A stretch of 64,000 nucleotides of DNA. Source: Escherichia coli (lineage in GTDB: Bacteria > Pseudomonadota > Gammaproteobacteria > Enterobacterales > Enterobacteriaceae). A model generated the notes under the pieces. The model made no database searches. It was not told the origin of the DNA and saw only the letters and a list, made by a program, of their open reading frames with translations. A program made the translations under genes and the position numbers. Where the stretch lies: NCBI RefSeq assembly GCF_003790525.1, contig NZ_CP033635.1. One strand, 5' to 3'. Each line of letters starts with the position of its first letter. The first letter of the stretch is position 1. Shown piece after piece: positions 1,498 through 57,529 of the stretch.

Positions 1498-1528
1498 TTC
1501 CTGCGACTTAAAATATAAATCGCAGGAA
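1498..1528 (-). terminator. Candidate terminator hairpin of the two-gene accessory cassette
   Basis: ttcctgcga ... tcgcaggaa arms (9-bp stem, AT-rich loop) lie about 50 nt downstream of the 768-aa ORF stop. On the minus strand a T-rich tract (ttatt) follows. Confidence 0.45.
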
Positions 1529-1577
1529 GCGATTTTAATTACCCGCTCTACCACTGGCGCAGGATATAAACTCTCAC

Positions 1578-3884
1578 CTACATTCCATAACGTTCAGAAA
1601 TAGCAGCATGCTTCTCTTCATTCGCCCCGGCTTCTTTGGCAAGACGCCACCAGCACAACGGATGTTCCCAGTCAGCGGTCAATTCGTGCAAGGTCTTATC
1701 GATATCACCTTTAGAAACTGAACGCGGCGCGCTGATAACAAAGTAGAACGCGGGCAGCGGCTGTGCATCTTCTCCCTGCTGGCTGTCCGTTAACGTATAG
1801 TCCTCGTTACTGTTGCTCCAGTAGTACCAGTTTCGTTCACGGAGCGCCTCACGGAAGGCATTAAACTGTTCTTCACCAGGCATGACACCTTCGCAGAACC
1901 AGGACTCGCCGTACTCAGTCGGGATAATGGTTTGCAGGCAGGCATAAAGTGGCGTGAAATTCTTCCGTTCTTCCTCATCCTCTGGTTGGGTGTTCAATAT
2001 TTCCGCATCGAATACCACAACTTCATCAACATGTTGCGGATAATCGGTCCGGTAAGTTGGCTCAATGATCCTTGCTGTTACCGGCCCAATACGTTGAGCA
2101 TAGTAATAGCGGTATTCATAATTTTCCCGGAAGCGAATGTTTAGCAGTCCCCATTTTTCGTCGATAAAACCTTCACCTTCCGTAAGTTCGATTTCCAGTT
2201 CAGCTGCAATAGCACGAACCAAATCCCATTGTTGCAGGATGCTGGCGGTCGCCATGATATCCCACTGGATATTACGAATATCTTCTTCACGGCTAATCAT
2301 CAGTTGCTGCAATTGTTGTAAATAATCCAGCTGTCGATCCCAGGCTTCCTGTTTTTGTGCTGCCCAGGAGCACATGCGATAAACGCCGATCCACTCACGC
2401 CCTTTTTCGTTTTGCAGCAACTGGTGCCCAATCGACTCGAGTTCACTCCAGTCTTCCTGTTGGTTGATCACTCGCGCACGGAACCACAAGGCCATATGTA
2501 GCAGCCCCGCCTGTTCATACTGCTTCGCCAGGTGCTCAATGGTTTGCAGATCGTCACGGTGGAGCAATAAATCCAACAGATCGAAGCAAAGACCATTATC
2601 TTCCTGGATGTGGCTTTCGACGTAGCGTTGCAGAAGTTCAATCGACTCATCAATCGCATTACAGGCGTTTAACGCATTGACCAGTTTGCCCAGCAATTCC
2701 GCATCATCTGGCGCGTTCAGGTAAGCGCGGCGGAATGTTTCGACGTCTTTTTCTGGATCTGGCTGCGTTTCTTCATCGCTATTTTCAGGTACTTCTACAA
2801 CCGGACGAGCAAGCAACTCTGCTTCTTTGGCGGCGATTTTTTCACTCAGTTCGAGAAACTCACGATCAACCCCCAGTAACACGCGTAATTTTGGCATGTG
2901 TCGCTGGGCCAGTTTCATCGCTATTTTGGCAACCCAGACGGATTCACGCTCCAGCGCCAGGGTAATTTGCAGTTTCGCCAGATCAACCACTTTGCGGTGC
3001 GCTCCGGCCTGCGAGCGGTGCTCCAGCATTTTTTGGATGATGCGCGCCAGTTGCCAGTTGTTTCTTTGTGGATGACGGGGAAGTAACACAGTAATGATTT
3101 TCAGCCATGACCCCCATGAATGGGGAGTCAGATCTGACCAACGCGGTAATTCCTCCCAGACTTCTTCGTCCTGCCCGCATAACGCCATGATGTACAGTTT
3201 TTTGAGGTGATTACTAATGCGGTCGCGGCCCCAGTAATCATTGGCTTCTGTCAGCTCATCAATCAGTATGCGTGCTTCATCATAACGCTGAAGTTCAATC
3301 AGAATATCGGCACGAGTATAAAGTAATGCATCAATATCATCTTCCCCGGCTGCTTTAACTGCGTCGATTTGTCGATCCAGATAAGCCAGTGCCTCCTCTA
3401 TTCTTTTGGAATCTATCAGTGCACTGGCATATTCAGTGGACAAACACTGAAAACAGCTCCAGGTCGGATCAATCCGCGCGATGGTTTCTTCACATACCGC
3501 CATACGTTCATTCGCCCAGCCAGGTGCATCAATATTTTCGTAGCAGGCGGATAAATCCTGGGTAACGCAGATAGATTGTGGGCAATCTTTTGTCTCTTCC
3601 CGGTGCGCTTTTTCAAACAGCGCTACCACGTCTGGCAGCACCTTTTCACCTTCTTCATAGTTAGTCAGGCGATGACGCATTTCCCAGTGACCAATAAATA
3701 TTTCCAGCCACGGATTTTTTGCCACCTGGGTAAGTGCTTTTACTTCAGGTAACAGCGAATCGCACTTTTCCATTTGCAGGTGCATAACGCCTTCCGAATA
3801 ATCATCGATAAGTTGCGGAATATACTCCTGCCCGGCATCGCGTAACTCCTTAGTATATTTGTGATACCACTCCCATATATCCAT
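1578..3884 (-). CDS. 768-aa helical-repeat (TPR-like) protein of unknown function, partner of the Hsp90 paralog
   Basis: Long uninterrupted ORF whose ATG (3884-3882) lies 1 nt after the upstream gene's TAA. The N-terminal ~550 aa are rich in Leu/Ala/Glu/Trp amphipathic segments such as ALLYTRADILIELQRYDEARILIDELTEA (TPR-like). It has a Cys cluster (C101-x4-C106, C114, C131, C144-x2-C147). The C-terminal ~200 aa show no recognisable motif. No signal peptide or TM segment. Confidence 0.8.
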   Translation of the reverse strand: MDIWEWYHKYTKELRDAGQEYIPQLIDDYSEGVMHLQMEKCDSLLPEVKALTQVAKNPWLEIFIGHWEMRHRLTNYEEGEKVLPDVVALFEKAHREETKDCPQSICVTQDLSACYENIDAPGWANERMAVCEETIARIDPTWSCFQCLSTEYASALIDSKRIEEALAYLDRQIDAVKAAGEDDIDALLYTRADILIELQRYDEARILIDELTEANDYWGRDRISNHLKKLYIMALCGQDEEVWEELPRWSDLTPHSWGSWLKIITVLLPRHPQRNNWQLARIIQKMLEHRSQAGAHRKVVDLAKLQITLALERESVWVAKIAMKLAQRHMPKLRVLLGVDREFLELSEKIAAKEAELLARPVVEVPENSDEETQPDPEKDVETFRRAYLNAPDDAELLGKLVNALNACNAIDESIELLQRYVESHIQEDNGLCFDLLDLLLHRDDLQTIEHLAKQYEQAGLLHMALWFRARVINQQEDWSELESIGHQLLQNEKGREWIGVYRMCSWAAQKQEAWDRQLDYLQQLQQLMISREEDIRNIQWDIMATASILQQWDLVRAIAAELEIELTEGEGFIDEKWGLLNIRFRENYEYRYYYAQRIGPVTARIIEPTYRTDYPQHVDEVVVFDAEILNTQPEDEEERKNFTPLYACLQTIIPTEYGESWFCEGVMPGEEQFNAFREALRERNWYYWSNSNEDYTLTDSQQGEDAQPLPAFYFVISAPRSVSKGDIDKTLHELTADWEHPLCWWRLAKEAGANEEKHAAISERYGM

Positions 3885-3885
3885 T

Positions 3886-5721
3886 TTATTTTCCTTGATT
3901 AATTAAGACAGGAATAACCTGAGTAAAATCTTCCAGTGCCTGGTGTAAATCCCACTGCTGTTCTTTATTACCGCTGGAGCACAAAATCACTTTCAGCGAT
4001 TTTAATAAGCGTAATGCCGCTGCGGGCTGTTGCTGGTGTTGTAATGCCGTCACCAGTTGCATGATGCAAGGGTTATTAAGGTTGATGTATAAACTTGAGG
4101 TTTTCGTTTTTTGGATTTGTGAAGTAAATTGCCGCGCCAGCATTAACGCTGCGGTGCTGATGCGTTTATCTGCGTCATCCTGTTCGAGAATTTGTTTTAA
4201 TTCTGCTTCGCGGTCTGGCGTAACCACTAACGGTAAAACGGCGGGTTCGAAGCGGGAGATAATTAATTGCTCGCCATCGCAGAGATGCTCTTCCAGATAA
4301 GCTACCTGCTCTTCGGGTAATTCCGCCAGGCTGAACAACTGCTCATTACCTGTTTGCGTACCGACTTCGACAATCCGGCAGTGATATAACAGCGCCCAGC
4401 GACGTAAAAATGGCACGACGGCATAGCGATCGCCACGGGCAACGGGCCGTTGCAGAATGTGGAACAACATCTCTTCAAAACCGCCGTCGCGGCTTAACAG
4501 AATATGAATGCTGTTATTAACGCGTAAATCCTTCGCCAGCAACGCCCCTTTTGACGTTGGCACCTGCAAGCGATCTTTGAGCAAATCAAACAGACGGTCA
4601 TCACATAATGCCGCACCGAGCAACGCTTCGTTGTGGCGCATTAATACACGCCGCCAGATTTCTGGCTGATTTTGTGCGAGATCGGACAAACCAGAAATCA
4701 GCGCCTCTTTTAACGCCTCCTGCACCGCAACCCAGGTTTCGTCCCGCTGGAGATCTTCCCGGCTCGCCGTAGGCGTTAGTTTCGATGACTCAATCACGCC
4801 GCCAATAAATCCGGCCCAGGGAGGTAACAACTCACGCGCTTCATCATCCAGTAACATACCGCGCAAAAACAGCGACAGGTTGCGGTTATCGCTGGTGCCG
4901 TAGGTTGCGCCATCCTGAATCCATAAAATCCCAACCGCGTCGCTCATCCCCACGGGCACCACCGGAATGGTGCAAATCGGTTCGAAGGAGGATTCAAACT
5001 GGGCGGCAAAGGCGAGATTTTTACGCTGTACCAGCGCGCGGTGCATGGTTACGCCTTCGGGGGCAACTTCACGCCACGGTGGTTGAAGTTTATTTACCGG
5101 CTCGCTGGCATCGCCGACATAGACCGGTTCGTGCAGCAATATACAGTAGCGGGAAAGAACGCGGTTCAGCAAATTGTTACTCGCCAGATGGCTGTACTCT
5201 TCTTTGAGCGTCAGAATCACCTGCGTACCCGTTTCCGAGGACTGATGCGGCGTAACGGTATATTTTTGCCCGTCGGTAGAGTGGTATTTCCAGCTCTGAT
5301 CCGGCGTTTGCCAGGATGTGGTCAACACCGTGACCTCTTTCGCCAACACAAAGGCCGACAAAAAACCGAGGCCGAACATACCAATTAAACCGGTGTTGTC
5401 ATCCTGCTGGCGCAACATTCGGGTATAACCCACGCCTACTGTCGCCAGGAAGCCGTGAATTTCACTTTCTGTCAGTCCAGCGCCAGTATCGCTAATAGTG
5501 ATAGTGGACTTCGCCACGTCTGCCACCACACGAATCGCGTTATCCTTTGGTGCATCGGGCTGCTCAATCCTGCGGCGAACGATCGCATCATGGCCGTTCT
5601 GCACCAGCTCGCGCACGGCAACCACGGGAGTGGAGTAAAGATGCTTACTGAGCACCTCAATTAAGCCGTTTAAATTAACTTCTGTAGAATATGAACTACC
5701 AGGTAACTGTAATGTACTCAT
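3886..5721 (-). CDS. Hsp90/HtpG-family GHKL ATPase paralog, 611 aa
   Basis: The protein aligns by eye with E. coli HtpG. TEVNLNGLIEVLSKHLYS...VRELVQNGHDA matches SEVKQLLHLMIHSLYS...LRELISNASDA. TITISDTGAGLT matches TLTISDNGVGMT, and LIGMFGLGFLSAFVLAKEVTVLT matches [23 protein letters not shown]. The middle-domain segment FIGGVIESSKLTPTASREDLQRD matches [23 protein letters not shown]. Confidence 0.88.
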   Translation of the reverse strand: MSTLQLPGSSYSTEVNLNGLIEVLSKHLYSTPVVAVRELVQNGHDAIVRRRIEQPDAPKDNAIRVVADVAKSTITISDTGAGLTESEIHGFLATVGVGYTRMLRQQDDNTGLIGMFGLGFLSAFVLAKEVTVLTTSWQTPDQSWKYHSTDGQKYTVTPHQSSETGTQVILTLKEEYSHLASNNLLNRVLSRYCILLHEPVYVGDASEPVNKLQPPWREVAPEGVTMHRALVQRKNLAFAAQFESSFEPICTIPVVPVGMSDAVGILWIQDGATYGTSDNRNLSLFLRGMLLDDEARELLPPWAGFIGGVIESSKLTPTASREDLQRDETWVAVQEALKEALISGLSDLAQNQPEIWRRVLMRHNEALLGAALCDDRLFDLLKDRLQVPTSKGALLAKDLRVNNSIHILLSRDGGFEEMLFHILQRPVARGDRYAVVPFLRRWALLYHCRIVEVGTQTGNEQLFSLAELPEEQVAYLEEHLCDGEQLIISRFEPAVLPLVVTPDREAELKQILEQDDADKRISTAALMLARQFTSQIQKTKTSSLYINLNNPCIMQLVTALQHQQQPAAALRLLKSLKVILCSSGNKEQQWDLHQALEDFTQVIPVLINQGK

Positions 5722-5987
5722 TTTTCAATACTCATAATCCATCACCTACTATTGAAAATACATCGCTGTTTTTACAACCGGTGCAAGGTTTGTTATTTCA
5801 TTCACTCATCGGAAACATTTATTTATTGACGCGATGATTAAAACAAAATGTCTTATATAAATAATGATTAATTCTTAAAGGATTAATGCGACTGGAGTAT
5901 ATCGATATAACCCGGAGTTAACGAGATAATTTCTTGTGGTGAAATTATTATTTGAATGCTGAATAATATATTGAGGATTATTTAATA

Positions 5988-6024
5988 GAAAAATAAAACC
6001 GCAATCCAGAATCAGAATTGCGGT
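5988..6024 (-). terminator. Rho-independent terminator of fdhD
   Basis: accgcaat / attgcggt stem (5998-6005 and 6017-6024) immediately after the fdhD stop, followed on the minus strand by tttatttttc. Confidence 0.7.
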
Positions 6025-49152: not shown

Positions 49153-50582
49153 TTAATGAACAAAACGTCCGGCACGAGACATAAATTCTTCTTCGCTCAT
49201 CTCCTGTCCGTTAAAAACAACTTTACCCGGTGTATAACGCAGCTGCAGCGAGGCGGTATTGTTGTCAATCGTGATTAACTGAAACATCTGACCTAATGTC
49301 ATCATCCCGCTGATTTGTTTATCAGCCTGCTTTTGCGCTTTTTCCGCATCCATTCCTTCAGATAAATTAAGCTGTTTTGCGGTTTCTGTGACGACATTAA
49401 GCGGTAACTTCACATCAAAATTGAGCGATTTAATATCTTTGTTTGTGGATGATGAAGATTTGGCGGGGTCGGCAATACTGATATCCAGATTGGCATTTAG
49501 TTCGCCGAGTGCGTTCTTCCATCTTACCGGTTGTTTAATGGTCGGCTCACTTTTTTGTAATAACGGTAAATACTCTTTGAACAATGCAGCATTCACTTCT
49601 TGCAGAGCAACTTCATCGTTTGCTAACTCAGGGTGTGCAGCAAGCTGCTTCTGCATCGCAATGTTATACTGGATGATAAATTGGCGCACCGCTGAGGGAT
49701 CAATAGATTCAGCAATCAATGACCACTCACCACTACCGAGTTGCTGATTCCCTTTTATTAACTTATCAAGTTCGTAGGTCAGATTGACATTGATATAATC
49801 TTTGTCTTTAACGCGATCCAGCCTGGTTTTTGCAACGAAAGCATCGATTTGGGCAACGACTTCCCCCTGGTTGATAATATTAACCTGATTAAATTTCGAC
49901 TCGCTTTCACCAACCGGAAATTTCTTTTCTTCTAATCGTGTCAGAGAATCAAAGGTAAAAATTTTCGCCGTTACTTTGTTCATTGGTGAAAATTGCAGAA
50001 CAATATCTTCGACTTTGCCTTCAATATCCAGGTTAGACAATGAACTACCATCACCATTAAAAGTAAACTGGCCCTTACCAAAGGAAAACTTTCCATACTC
50101 TGCAGGGGCAACATCTAATGTCGTGGAGAATGAGCCACCAAACGCGAACCTCAATGTCGCTTCCACGGGCGATTTATTTTTCGCGGCGATAAATAGCGGT
50201 TGTGTCAGTTCATTATTCACTAAGTTCACTTTTGCCGCTGCCAGTGCCGGGATGACATTACCATGCATTAACATTGTGATGGGCAACGGACCGTGCTCAA
50301 CATCCACATCAAATGCAACTTTCTGGCCTGGCTTGATATTGAGATCGGGTGCACCGTTATCAAATGTTATTTGCATTTGAAAATGAGAATTAAAAAAGCC
50401 TTTGTCAAAGTTTTTATAACTTAACGTCATATCGTAGGCATGTTCACCTTTTTTTTAGCATCGTTAAAATCTTTAATAAACTTTTCGACACCAGGCTGAA
50501 TTTGCGTACCTGTGTACCATGTGCCACCACCCCAGATTACGGCTAACGCAACAATAACACCTGTAGCTGACTTACGTATCAT
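49153..50582 (-). pseudogene. yihF: yihF (DUF945 membrane-anchored protein) interrupted by a 1-nt frameshift in an A8 run
   Basis: ORF 50427-50582 (MIRKSATGVIVALAVIWGGGTWYTG...DAKKK-VNMPTI*) and ORF 49153-50430 (MTLSYKNFDKG...) overlap by 4 nt. One extra A in the run at 50449-50456 (T8 on the plus strand) would read ...DAKKKGEHAYDMTLSYKNF... and give a continuous 476-aa protein. Confidence 0.75.
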
Positions 50583-57092: not shown

Positions 57093-57266
57093 TCACAACC
57101 CGAAGATGTTTCACTTCAGAGTTGCGAAAATTTGAGAGACTCACGAACAACTTTCGTTGTTCAGTGTTTCAATTTTCAGCTTGATCCAGATTTTTAAAGA
57201 GCAAAACTTCGCAGTGAACCTTTGCAGGTACACTCTGAAGTATTTTTTATTTAATCACTACAGAGA

Positions 57267-57342
57267 TGGTGGAGCTATGCGGGATCGAACCGCAGACCTC
57301 CTGCGTGCAAAGCAGGCGCTCTCCCAGCTGAGCTATAGCCCC
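57267..57342 (-). tRNA. alaT: tRNA-Ala (UGC)
   Basis: The reverse complement reads ggggctatagctcagctgggagagcgcctgctttgcacgcaggaggtctgcggttcgatcccgcatagctccacca. Confidence 0.97.
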
Positions 57343-57384
57343 ATAACATGTAGTTAAAACCTCTTCAAATTTGCGATGCAAATT

Positions 57385-57461
<77 letters not shown>

Positions 57462-57529
57462 GTAGAGGTTTTACTGCTCATTTTCATCAGACAATCTGTG
57501 TGAGCACTGCAAAGCACAGTTCTTTAAGG

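Follow-up and report, generated by a model that had tools for sequence, protein, structure and literature searches.

Why should a strain of Escherichia coli that has a true htpG elsewhere in its genome carry a second gene of the Hsp90 type, and why should that gene be followed directly by one for a large protein annotated only as hypothetical? The question is raised by a window of 64,000 nucleotides (nt), by which we mean the whole stretch of DNA that was analysed (contig NZ_CP033635.1 of assembly GCF_003790525.1); it is chromosomal and shares 99.98% identity with E. coli strain SMS-3-5, and in it the gene for a protein of 611 amino acids (aa) and the gene for its 768-aa partner lie together between fdhD and yiiG. 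An initial annotation, made from the sequence alone, had seen in the 611-aa protein an Hsp90 paralog that keeps its catalytic residues and diverges in the lid and the C-terminus. As set out below, this is a genuine full-length Hsp90-family protein with the three-domain N-M-C arrangement, and its gene is under strong purifying selection and is not decaying. We lean towards the view that the two genes form a dedicated module in which an Hsp90 works with an adaptor or co-chaperone, or else with an obligate client that may act as a scaffold.

Family membership and the ATPase apparatus

Matches to both Pfam families expected of an Hsp90 lie above their cut-offs, HATPase_c_3 at aa 32-174 (38.4 bits, cut-off 25) and HSP90 at aa 274-353 (33.5 bits, cut-off 24.4). 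The best-scoring curated family is NCBIfam NF010683/PRK14083, 'HSP90 family protein' (1e-85, aa 13-571), which is also matched by all 65 of the relatives used throughout this study, a set made up of a subfamily of 49 members and a next tier at ~30% identity. The NCBIfam model for HtpG itself (NF003555) matches aa 14-385 at 3.7e-58, and alignment of the 49-member subfamily profile with E. coli HtpG by hhalign gives a probability of 99.9% (E 1.8e-35, aa 12-398). A phmmer search of the PDB sequences returned 167 matches of which the best 60 are all Hsp90s, led by TRAP1 (5e-30) and E. coli HtpG (5.5e-28). The AlphaFold2 (AF2) model of the protein has a predicted local distance difference test score (pLDDT) of 92.5 and a predicted template-modelling score (pTM) of 0.88, and its top 50 Foldseek matches in the PDB are all full-length Hsp90 protomers, with template-modelling (TM) scores of 0.67-0.72 over ~650-680 alignment columns; these include HtpG (9a6t_B, E 1.9e-37, TM 0.71), TRAP1, Hsc82, Hsp90-beta and GRP94, mostly in closed, nucleotide-bound states. 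With whole-protein profile and database matches to Hsp90s that run from 1e-28 to 1e-85, the motifs from which the family was first recognised are not chance matches.

The strings and residue numbers on which that recognition was based were all read correctly, namely STEVN at 12-16 (E14), ELVQNGHDA at 38-46 (N42, D45), ISDTGAGL at 76-83 (D78, G80, G82), LIGMFGLGF at 112-120 (G114, G117, G119), TPTASREDLQ at 316-325 (R321) and the lid ATVGVGYTRML at 93-103. The choice of E14 as the catalytic glutamate was, however, mistaken, as this residue aligns with Q10 of HtpG (or with the Q of TRAP1 'FQAE') and is a glutamate in only 6 of the 49 subfamily members; the predicted catalytic glutamate is instead E38 of RELVQN, which stands opposite E34 of HtpG. 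The remaining pairs in the alignment with HtpG are N42/N38, D78/D80, S320-R321-E322/S335-R336-E337 and Q325/Q340, and by established numbering the yeast counterparts are E33 for the catalytic glutamate and R380 for the middle-domain arginine. Conservation agrees with these assignments: Y29, R37, E38, N42, D45, D78, G80, G82, G114, G117 and G119 do not vary in any of the 65 relatives, R321 is kept in 64/65, and P317, T318, A319 and E322 are invariant within the subfamily. The conclusion that the determinants of ATP hydrolysis are retained in both the N and M domains survives the change of glutamate, because E38 sits inside the N box that had been quoted for it; the corresponding HtpG(E34A) is a mutant that has already been used in work on the bacterial protein (PMC3708813).

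The ratio of non-synonymous to synonymous substitution rates (dN/dS) for the 611-aa gene is 0.03 when compared with its E. whittamii ortholog (dS 0.29) and 0.02 when compared with that of Superficieibacter, and for the partner gene it is 0.11. Together with the invariant catalytic residues this upholds the earlier proposal of an intact split-ATPase apparatus in place of a decayed paralog, with the activity itself a prediction. That the protein might be a decayed pseudo-ATPase, or a GHKL protein from outside the Hsp90 family (MutL, MORC, topoisomerase VI (TopoVI) subunit B or sacsin-like), could be argued from its N-domain, which is also matched by the NCBIfam models for the sacsin N-terminus and BbrUII and by HATPase_c_3. 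Such matches, however, cover only aa ~11-195 whilst the full-length matches are all to Hsp90s; a grouping with MutL, MORC or TopoVI finds no support, as none of these is among the best 60 PDB sequence matches or the top 50 fold matches, and the conserved SRExLQ loop, the invariance of the catalytic residues and the low dN/dS of 0.03 leave this explanation with next to no probability.

Being an Hsp90 does not make the protein an HtpG. At 197.5 bits it scores below the equivalog cut-off of 371 for the HtpG model, so that by the NCBIfam test it is not an HtpG ortholog, and because its score of 288.5 bits is likewise below the equivalog cut-off of 455 for PRK14083 it is best described as a separate, sister subfamily to PRK14083, for which the Prokaryotic Genome Annotation Pipeline (PGAP) has no name other than 'ATP-binding protein'. 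It resembles HtpG and TRAP1 in the N-M-C fold (TM about 0.70), the RELxxN glutamate, the magnesium-binding asparagine, the DxGxG and GxxGxG motifs, the SRExLQ arginine, the PPW/ALW motif that follows the N-domain and the lack of a MEEVD tail. It differs from HtpG in that identity is ~25% over aa 12-398 with no sequence alignment beyond this, in a shorter N-M linker, and in gaps of 3, 5 and 10 residues. Furthermore HtpG residues E269, K354, R355 and D366, which we take to be those that contact DnaK, align with V257, E339, A340 and N351 of the 611-aa protein.

The two regions that had been singled out as divergent, the ATP lid and the C-terminal third, turn out to differ from HtpG in separate ways. 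The lid is 5 residues shorter than that of HtpG and has LATVGVGYTRML in place of LGTIAKSGTKSF, and to this extent the reported difference is real. It is not drift, however, as the subfamily has a conserved lid motif of its own, LATxGxGYTRxLR, in which A93 is kept in 49/49 members, T94 in 45/49, G96 in 47/49, G98 in 48/49, T100 in 45/49 and R104 in 47/49, and the lid is therefore a lineage-specific conserved variant. The last ~200 aa had been described as only faintly HtpG-like, and it is true that the hhalign alignment to HtpG stops at 398. PRK14083, however, aligns as far as aa 571 and the predicted fold superposes over its full length, for which reasons the C-terminal fold is retained: whole protomers of HtpG (with which a comparison had initially been proposed), TRAP1, Hsc82 and GRP94 superpose on the predicted structure (TM 0.67-0.72), and like the C-terminal domains of other Hsp90s that of the model finishes with a pair of long helices, at aa 567-581 and aa 592-610. 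The Hsp90 C-terminal-domain fold has been kept whilst its sequence has diverged. A MEEVD-like tail is indeed absent, the protein ending in ...VIPVLINQGK, but this is uninformative as HtpG is also without MEEVD.

The 768-aa partner and the extent of the pairing

The ATG of the partner gene is found 1 nt after the TAA of the paralog gene, with an AAGGA Shine-Dalgarno sequence inside the end of the latter. How general this arrangement is was assessed by a scan from the Hsp90 side in which one genome per species was used and the partner was found by hidden Markov model. This gave 80 loci from Gamma-, Beta- and Deltaproteobacteria, Holophaga, Kitasatospora/Streptomyces and metagenome-assembled genomes of Chloroflexi and Fibrobacterota, so that the phyla represented are Proteobacteria, Acidobacteria, Actinobacteria, Chloroflexi and Fibrobacterota. 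The partner is directly downstream on the same strand in 77 of the 80, or in 77 of the 78 assessable loci once the two exceptions at contig ends are set aside. When approached from the partner side, an Hsp90-type gene is immediately upstream on the same strand in 5/5 contexts, and no two of these have related flanks. When flanks from 32 genera were compared all against all, no third conserved gene was found; the clusters that at first appeared to be such genes were shadow open reading frames (ORFs) inside the two genes. A search for Rosetta-stone fusions found longer Hsp90-like proteins (840-930 aa) that are without a partner-like region.

It is at this point that the simplest explanation of the 611-aa protein, that it is a redundant or condition-specific isoform of HtpG and that its neighbour is unrelated, can be weighed. 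The shared fold and catalytic residues are what would be expected of an isoform, but ~25% identity, a sequence that cannot be aligned past aa 398, a conserved lid of its own and a score of 197 bits against the 371-bit HtpG cut-off are not, and retention of the same neighbour in 77/78 assessable loci across phyla is beyond coincidence. We consider this explanation very improbable.

The partner family is uniform in length at 750-790 aa and is found in Klebsiella aerogenes, Cronobacter, P. aeruginosa, Xanthomonas, Stenotrophomonas, Acinetobacter, Rhodocyclaceae, Parabeggiatoa and many metagenomes; in P. aeruginosa a single cluster at 90% holds 2871 sequences. There are nevertheless short partners. 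Pseudomonas sp. 286 has only the N-terminal 369 aa (L078:8804-9910), and in a borderline metagenomic lineage whose paralog (P0283) is at 37% identity the downstream protein is of 352 aa and corresponds to partner residues 2-353 (E 4e-56), with the cysteine motif included (L096:2577-3635). As these short partners of 352-369 aa keep just the N-terminal half, the invariant unit is the Hsp90 paralog plus that half of the partner. A separate observation concerns Variovorax, in which a second, more distant Hsp90-like ORF is found shortly upstream of the paralog-partner pair (L079:3999-6110; L081:2-2131).

The AF2 model of the partner (pLDDT 92.5, pTM 0.79) consists of an all-helical repeat over aa 1-561, with a disordered break at aa 360-375, and an alpha/beta domain at aa 575-767. 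Nearly all the invariant polar residues of the family are in the first 150 aa, and comprise E46, H65, C100-P-Q-S-x-C105, D109, C113 (at least 90%), D118, E132, C143-x-x-C146 and E150. The two cysteine pairs are placed at helix N-termini in the model, which suggests a Cys4 metal or redox site. By contrast the only invariants of the C-terminal domain are Gly, Pro, Ala and Tyr, and it is unlikely on this pattern of conservation that this domain is an enzyme.

Orthologous modules of two genes can be recognised in well-studied bacteria. That of P. aeruginosa, by the PAO1 map, is presumably PA1068/PA1069, where PA1068 would be the 'probable heat shock protein, hsp90 family' and PA1069 (UniProt Q9I4Q5) is a hypothetical protein; here the partner is 42% identical over its full length. 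In Xanthomonas the module consists of 'Hsp90xo' and a downstream TPR gene whose product is 39% identical to the partner, and the Hsp90 paralogs of Pseudomonas and Xanthomonas are 57-58% identical to the 611-aa protein. The flanks are unlike those in E. coli: the P. aeruginosa locus is between a gene for a LysR-type regulator and an ABC-transporter operon (braG) that precedes flagellar rod genes, and in Xanthomonas there is a pair of regulators of the AraC/OmpR kind. The module of Xanthomonas campestris comes right after this divergent pair, of OmpR type (261 aa) and AraC type (476 aa) (L003:2659-5701). These regulators are probably hrpG and hrpX, for which NCBIfam has no specific model; this would explain the name 'Hsp90xo'.

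The literature searched on Hsp90xo, PA1068/PA1069, HtpG paralogs and bacterial co-chaperones yielded entries in omics lists and phylogenies of groups A/B/C, and no function or pairing was found in it. PA1069 has been noted as operonic with an Hsp90-family gene and as less abundant in efhP mutants (PMC4053335), its protein has been detected in P. aeruginosa adhesion proteomes (PMC5541441), and it is in a co-immunoprecipitation list for BatR (PMC13411936). Divergent bacterial Hsp90 paralogs have been described as HtpG groups B and C (Chen 2006, PMC1525184) or as hsp90B and hsp90C (Press 2013, PMC3708813). Whilst hsp90A and hsp90B are reported never to co-occur (PMC3708813), hsp90C can co-occur with hsp90A, and group C has shorter variable regions than group A and a patchy distribution (PMC1525184, PMC3708813). 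Neither paper assigns a function to group C or mentions a partner for it (PMC1525184, PMC3708813), hsp90B and hsp90C being explicitly ignored in Press 2013. The 611-aa protein is like hsp90C/group C in that it co-occurs with htpG, has shorter variable regions than HtpG and is scattered among phyla. As E. coli has hsp90A, which excludes hsp90B by the co-occurrence rule, it most likely belongs to the 'hsp90C / HtpG group C' lineage, judging by this rule and by the shorter variable regions.

A partner with TPR repeats invites comparison with the TPR co-chaperones of eukaryotes (Hop/Sti1, CHIP, PP5, FKBP51/52, Tah1). These hold MEEVD in a carboxylate clamp, a mode that cannot apply here with the tail of the paralog unconserved; the partner is moreover far larger, its core is a helical domain with a cysteine cluster and not a 3-TPR clamp, and the homology extends only to the generic TPR repeat. 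Since there is no conserved C-terminal peptide, any contact between paralog and partner must differ from the eukaryotic TPR-MEEVD contact.

Chromosomal setting and the case for a defence role

Of 5426 complete E. coli genomes 254 (about 5%) have the module, whilst in Pseudomonas and Xanthomonas it looks core; htpG is present in 5424 of the same 5426, and every genome that bears the module also has htpG. Other Escherichia species and Superficieibacter have it at the same fdhD-yiiG site, which lies amongst housekeeping genes; in K-12 this site holds a spacer of 152 bp. The partner stop codon is followed closely, at window 1500-1577, by a degenerate copy of the final ~35 nt of fdhD together with the hairpin that terminates fdhD in K-12, and the real fdhD of this strain ends with a different terminator (5998-6024). 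This duplicate resembles a scar that an ancient insertion or deletion has left at the fdhD 3' end; together with the spacer of K-12 it would fit an insertion made there long ago and since lost from most lineages.

No copy of the module was found on plasmids at the DNA level. Protein-level searches gave 3 plasmid matches and 1 phage match, in records of 847 kb and 11.85 Mb (labelled 'plasmid'), of 29 kb, and a 156-kb Salmonella whole-genome shotgun contig; from the sizes of these records the matches are judged to be chromosomal sequence. The only partner match in the phage collection is this last contig, from Salmonella Infantis (AFYI01000005.1:52933-55239, 156 kb), which encodes an ortholog of 76.5% identity and from which it follows that some Salmonella carry the module.

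This distribution bears on the main alternative, that the pair is a conflict or immune system (anti-phage or stress-sensing) in which a GHKL switch is coupled to a TPR sensor in the manner of STAND/MalT-type or RRNPP-type proteins. The best structural matches of the solenoid are sensor domains, the N-domain weakly resembles Tiamat TmtA and BbrUII enzymes, and a distant Hsp90-like clade adjoins a SLATT gene. However, with MalT domain III (SUPR) and the RRNPP sensors Rap, AimR, NprR and PlcR the partner is only 7-10% identical, the likeness is of the helical-repeat scaffold alone and is generic to the TPR fold, and unlike these proteins the partner is without a STAND NTPase, helix-turn-helix or phosphatase module. 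In PADLOC-DB 2.0 the partner has no match and the paralog matches only through aa 13-137, weakly, to TmtA (5.7e-6 and weaker) and REase_II; assignment to a PADLOC defence system was set aside as these are generic GHKL matches. There is no effector domain, the invariants of the C-terminal domain being what they are, and the module is missing from phages and all but missing from plasmids. Housekeeping flanks at fixed chromosomal sites, a P. aeruginosa partner cluster of thousands of sequences and very strong purifying selection also speak against defence, which we regard as improbable.

The coordinates of the module and of the sequences around it are collected in Table 1. The plus-strand translation of 3886-5721 is full of stops with no ORF, and a plus-strand reading of this interval was rejected for that reason. 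A sigma-70 promoter scan upstream of the operon gave no convincing consensus on the minus strand.

Table 1. Positions of the two genes, their domains and motifs, and the flanking signals in the 64,000-nt window
Feature	Coordinates	Strand	Basis
611-aa Hsp90-family paralog gene	3886..5721	minus	ORF from ATG to TAA, translation; RefSeq WP_000105771.1 'ATP-binding protein' (SMS-3-5 annotation)
N-terminal GHKL ATPase domain, ~aa 1-205, boundary approximate	5107..5721	minus	Pfam HATPase_c_3, hhalign to HtpG N-domain, AF2 secondary structure
Motif I / N box R37-E38-L-V-Q-N42-G-H-D45-A	5584..5613	minus	aligned to HtpG RELISNASDA (E34, N38); invariant in 65/65 relatives
G1 box ISD78TG80AG82L, adenine-binding Asp	5473..5496	minus	positions read, invariant
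ATP-lid segment L92-R104 (LATVGVGYTRMLR), variant of Hsp90 LGTIAKSGTKxF	5410..5448	minus	alignment to HtpG, subfamily conservation
G2 box LIG114MFG117LG119F, phosphate-binding glycines	5362..5388	minus	HtpG alignment, conservation
Middle domain, ~aa 206-480, boundary approximate	4282..5106	minus	Pfam HSP90, hhalign to aa 398, full-length fold match
Catalytic loop TPTAS-R321-EDLQ (HtpG NVS-R336-EILQ)	4747..4776	minus	profile alignments, conservation
Predicted C-terminal domain, ~aa 481-611	3889..4281	minus	AF2 pLDDT 92.5, Foldseek TM about 0.70, PRK14083 to aa 571
768-aa partner gene	1578..3884	minus	RefSeq WP_000355938.1 'hypothetical protein' (SMS-3-5 annotation)
Partner N-terminal helical domain, aa 1-150	3435..3884	minus	alignment, motif display; kept in 352-aa short partner
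Partner cysteine motif C100-x4-C105, C113, C143-xx-C146	3447-3587	minus	alignment, motif display
Partner TPR/SUPR-like alpha-solenoid, aa 151-561, disordered break aa 360-375	2202..3434	minus	
Partner C-terminal alpha/beta domain, aa 575-768	1581..2162	minus	AF2 secondary structure
AT-rich upstream region, presumed promoter region of the two-gene operon	5722..5997	minus	between fdhD terminator and start codon; sequence
Intrinsic-terminator-like hairpin and T-run ending fdhD, separating fdhD from the module	5998..6024	minus	terminator/promoter scan
Terminator-like hairpin 3' of the partner gene	1517..1535	minus	within degenerate fdhD 3' end copy and K-12-type fdhD terminator (about 1500-1577)

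Several observations were made in passing elsewhere in the window. The alpha subunit of formate dehydrogenase-O is split into ORFs of 195 aa and 804 aa at 7061-10111 by an in-frame TGA between 7648 and 7697, where RefSeq has a single coding sequence of 3051 nt (fdnG in SMS-3-5, fdoG in K-12), and this TGA is presumably a selenocysteine codon. Between fabY and yiiE, at about 14288-16102 (SMS-3-5 annotation, coordinates converted), a gene for a transposase and a hypothetical ORF that is truncated at its C-terminus suggest the arrival of an insertion sequence, and at about 49153-50582 yihF is a frameshifted pseudogene in the SMS-3-5 annotation. The only stretch not collinear with SMS-3-5 is 57205-57478, a small zone of insertions and deletions in the rRNA operon region, the rest being 99.97-99.98% identical. 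Outside the window, the distant Hsp90-like clade mentioned above has at one locus (L094:243-5910) two tandem genes for proteins of 620 and 908 aa, followed by the gene for a SLATT-domain protein; the 908-aa protein has a weakly nucleoside-2-deoxyribosyltransferase-like C-terminus. This context is conflict-system-like and is unlike that of the subfamily in the window.

A possible mode of action and what it would mean

How might such a pair work? We infer ATPase activity, dimerisation, a physical interaction and a co-chaperone role from sequence and predicted structure, and the scheme that follows is to be read in that light. The 611-aa protein would be a clamp, joined as a dimer by its C-terminal helices, that opens and closes in the course of its cycle. 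ATP would be bound in the GHKL pocket, with N42 holding the magnesium ion, D78 contacting the adenine and glycines G80, G82, G114, G117 and G119 lining the site, and the subfamily-specific lid would close over it; hydrolysis would follow once R321, carried by the middle-domain loop, has reached the gamma-phosphate, E38 serving as general base. The two-gene operon would be self-contained, and the N-terminal ~350 aa of the partner, that is the Cys-cluster helical domain and the first TPR block, would be the conserved core of the partnership. By this half, and not by a clamp for a tail peptide, the partner may dock on the paralog, after which it could tune the cycle, bring or choose clients, or itself serve as a scaffold client, whilst clients or regulators would be bound by the rest of the TPR solenoid and by the orphan C-terminal domain.

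Within this scheme the roles of adaptor and client are not equally well favoured. Were the 768-aa protein an obligate client or cargo, the paralog would fold it, assemble it or keep it poised, and the real function would be held by the solenoid protein. The strict pairing with no third conserved gene fits such a relationship, as does the faster evolution of the partner (dN/dS 0.11 against 0.03) and the fact that it is large, multi-domain and may have a metal site; furthermore the clients of eukaryotic Hsp90s include TPR/solenoid proteins and sensor proteins. The short partners, however, keep only the N-terminal half, which is a better fit to a binding or regulatory module, and the partner has no recognisable enzymatic or output domain. 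We therefore favour a co-chaperone over a client, the latter being in our estimation unlikely, if less so than a defence system. The most specific form of the co-chaperone proposal is that in the 768-aa protein we have the first case of a bacterial Hsp90 with an obligate co-chaperone encoded in its own operon, that the 768-aa protein binds by its N-terminal ~350 aa and gates the ATPase or the choice of client, and that its four invariant cysteines may form a zinc or redox switch; this much can be offered as a tentative suggestion, about which doubt outweighs confidence. If it is true, an Hsp90 co-chaperone system has evolved independently in bacteria.

A number of observations weigh against the view of a dedicated module. 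Thorsellia anophelis, the third exception to the pairing, has the paralog followed by aspS with no partner nearby (L080:944-4989), and a member of the sister clade (P0297) stands alone without a partner. The last 15 residues of the paralog are unrelated among 17 subfamily members and their consensus has no conserved tail peptide, so a target for a TPR clamp is missing. No match was found for the C-terminal domain of the partner in Pfam, among PDB sequences or by fold, the only matches being fragments of the same family, and no function can be assigned to the Cys cluster. The mRNA of PA1069 is ~4-fold down at 46 C (PMC4957987), which is a poor fit to a classical heat-shock chaperone. The presence of the module in so small a fraction of E. 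coli genomes makes it dispensable there, and the placement of the paralog in group C derives from a co-occurrence rule and from shorter variable regions.

Bacterial Hsp90 is described as having no identified obligate co-chaperone (PMC3708813) and only a few known clients (PMC11687934). The clade to which the paralog belongs is itself already known, but it is functionally unexplored, and the part worth following is the near-universal pairing with a Cys-cluster/TPR protein. One subfamily of the paralogs that had been set aside is thus found to be catalytically intact by the conservation of its residues, under purifying selection and locked to a large TPR protein across several phyla. Its annotation could change from 'ATP-binding protein' and 'hypothetical protein' to 'Hsp90-family paralog' and 'Hsp90-paralog-associated TPR protein'. 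Neither gene is essential, and natural E. coli strains include some that have the module and others that lack it, which makes for a tractable system, and one suited to asking how a partner specialises an Hsp90 and what hsp90C is for.

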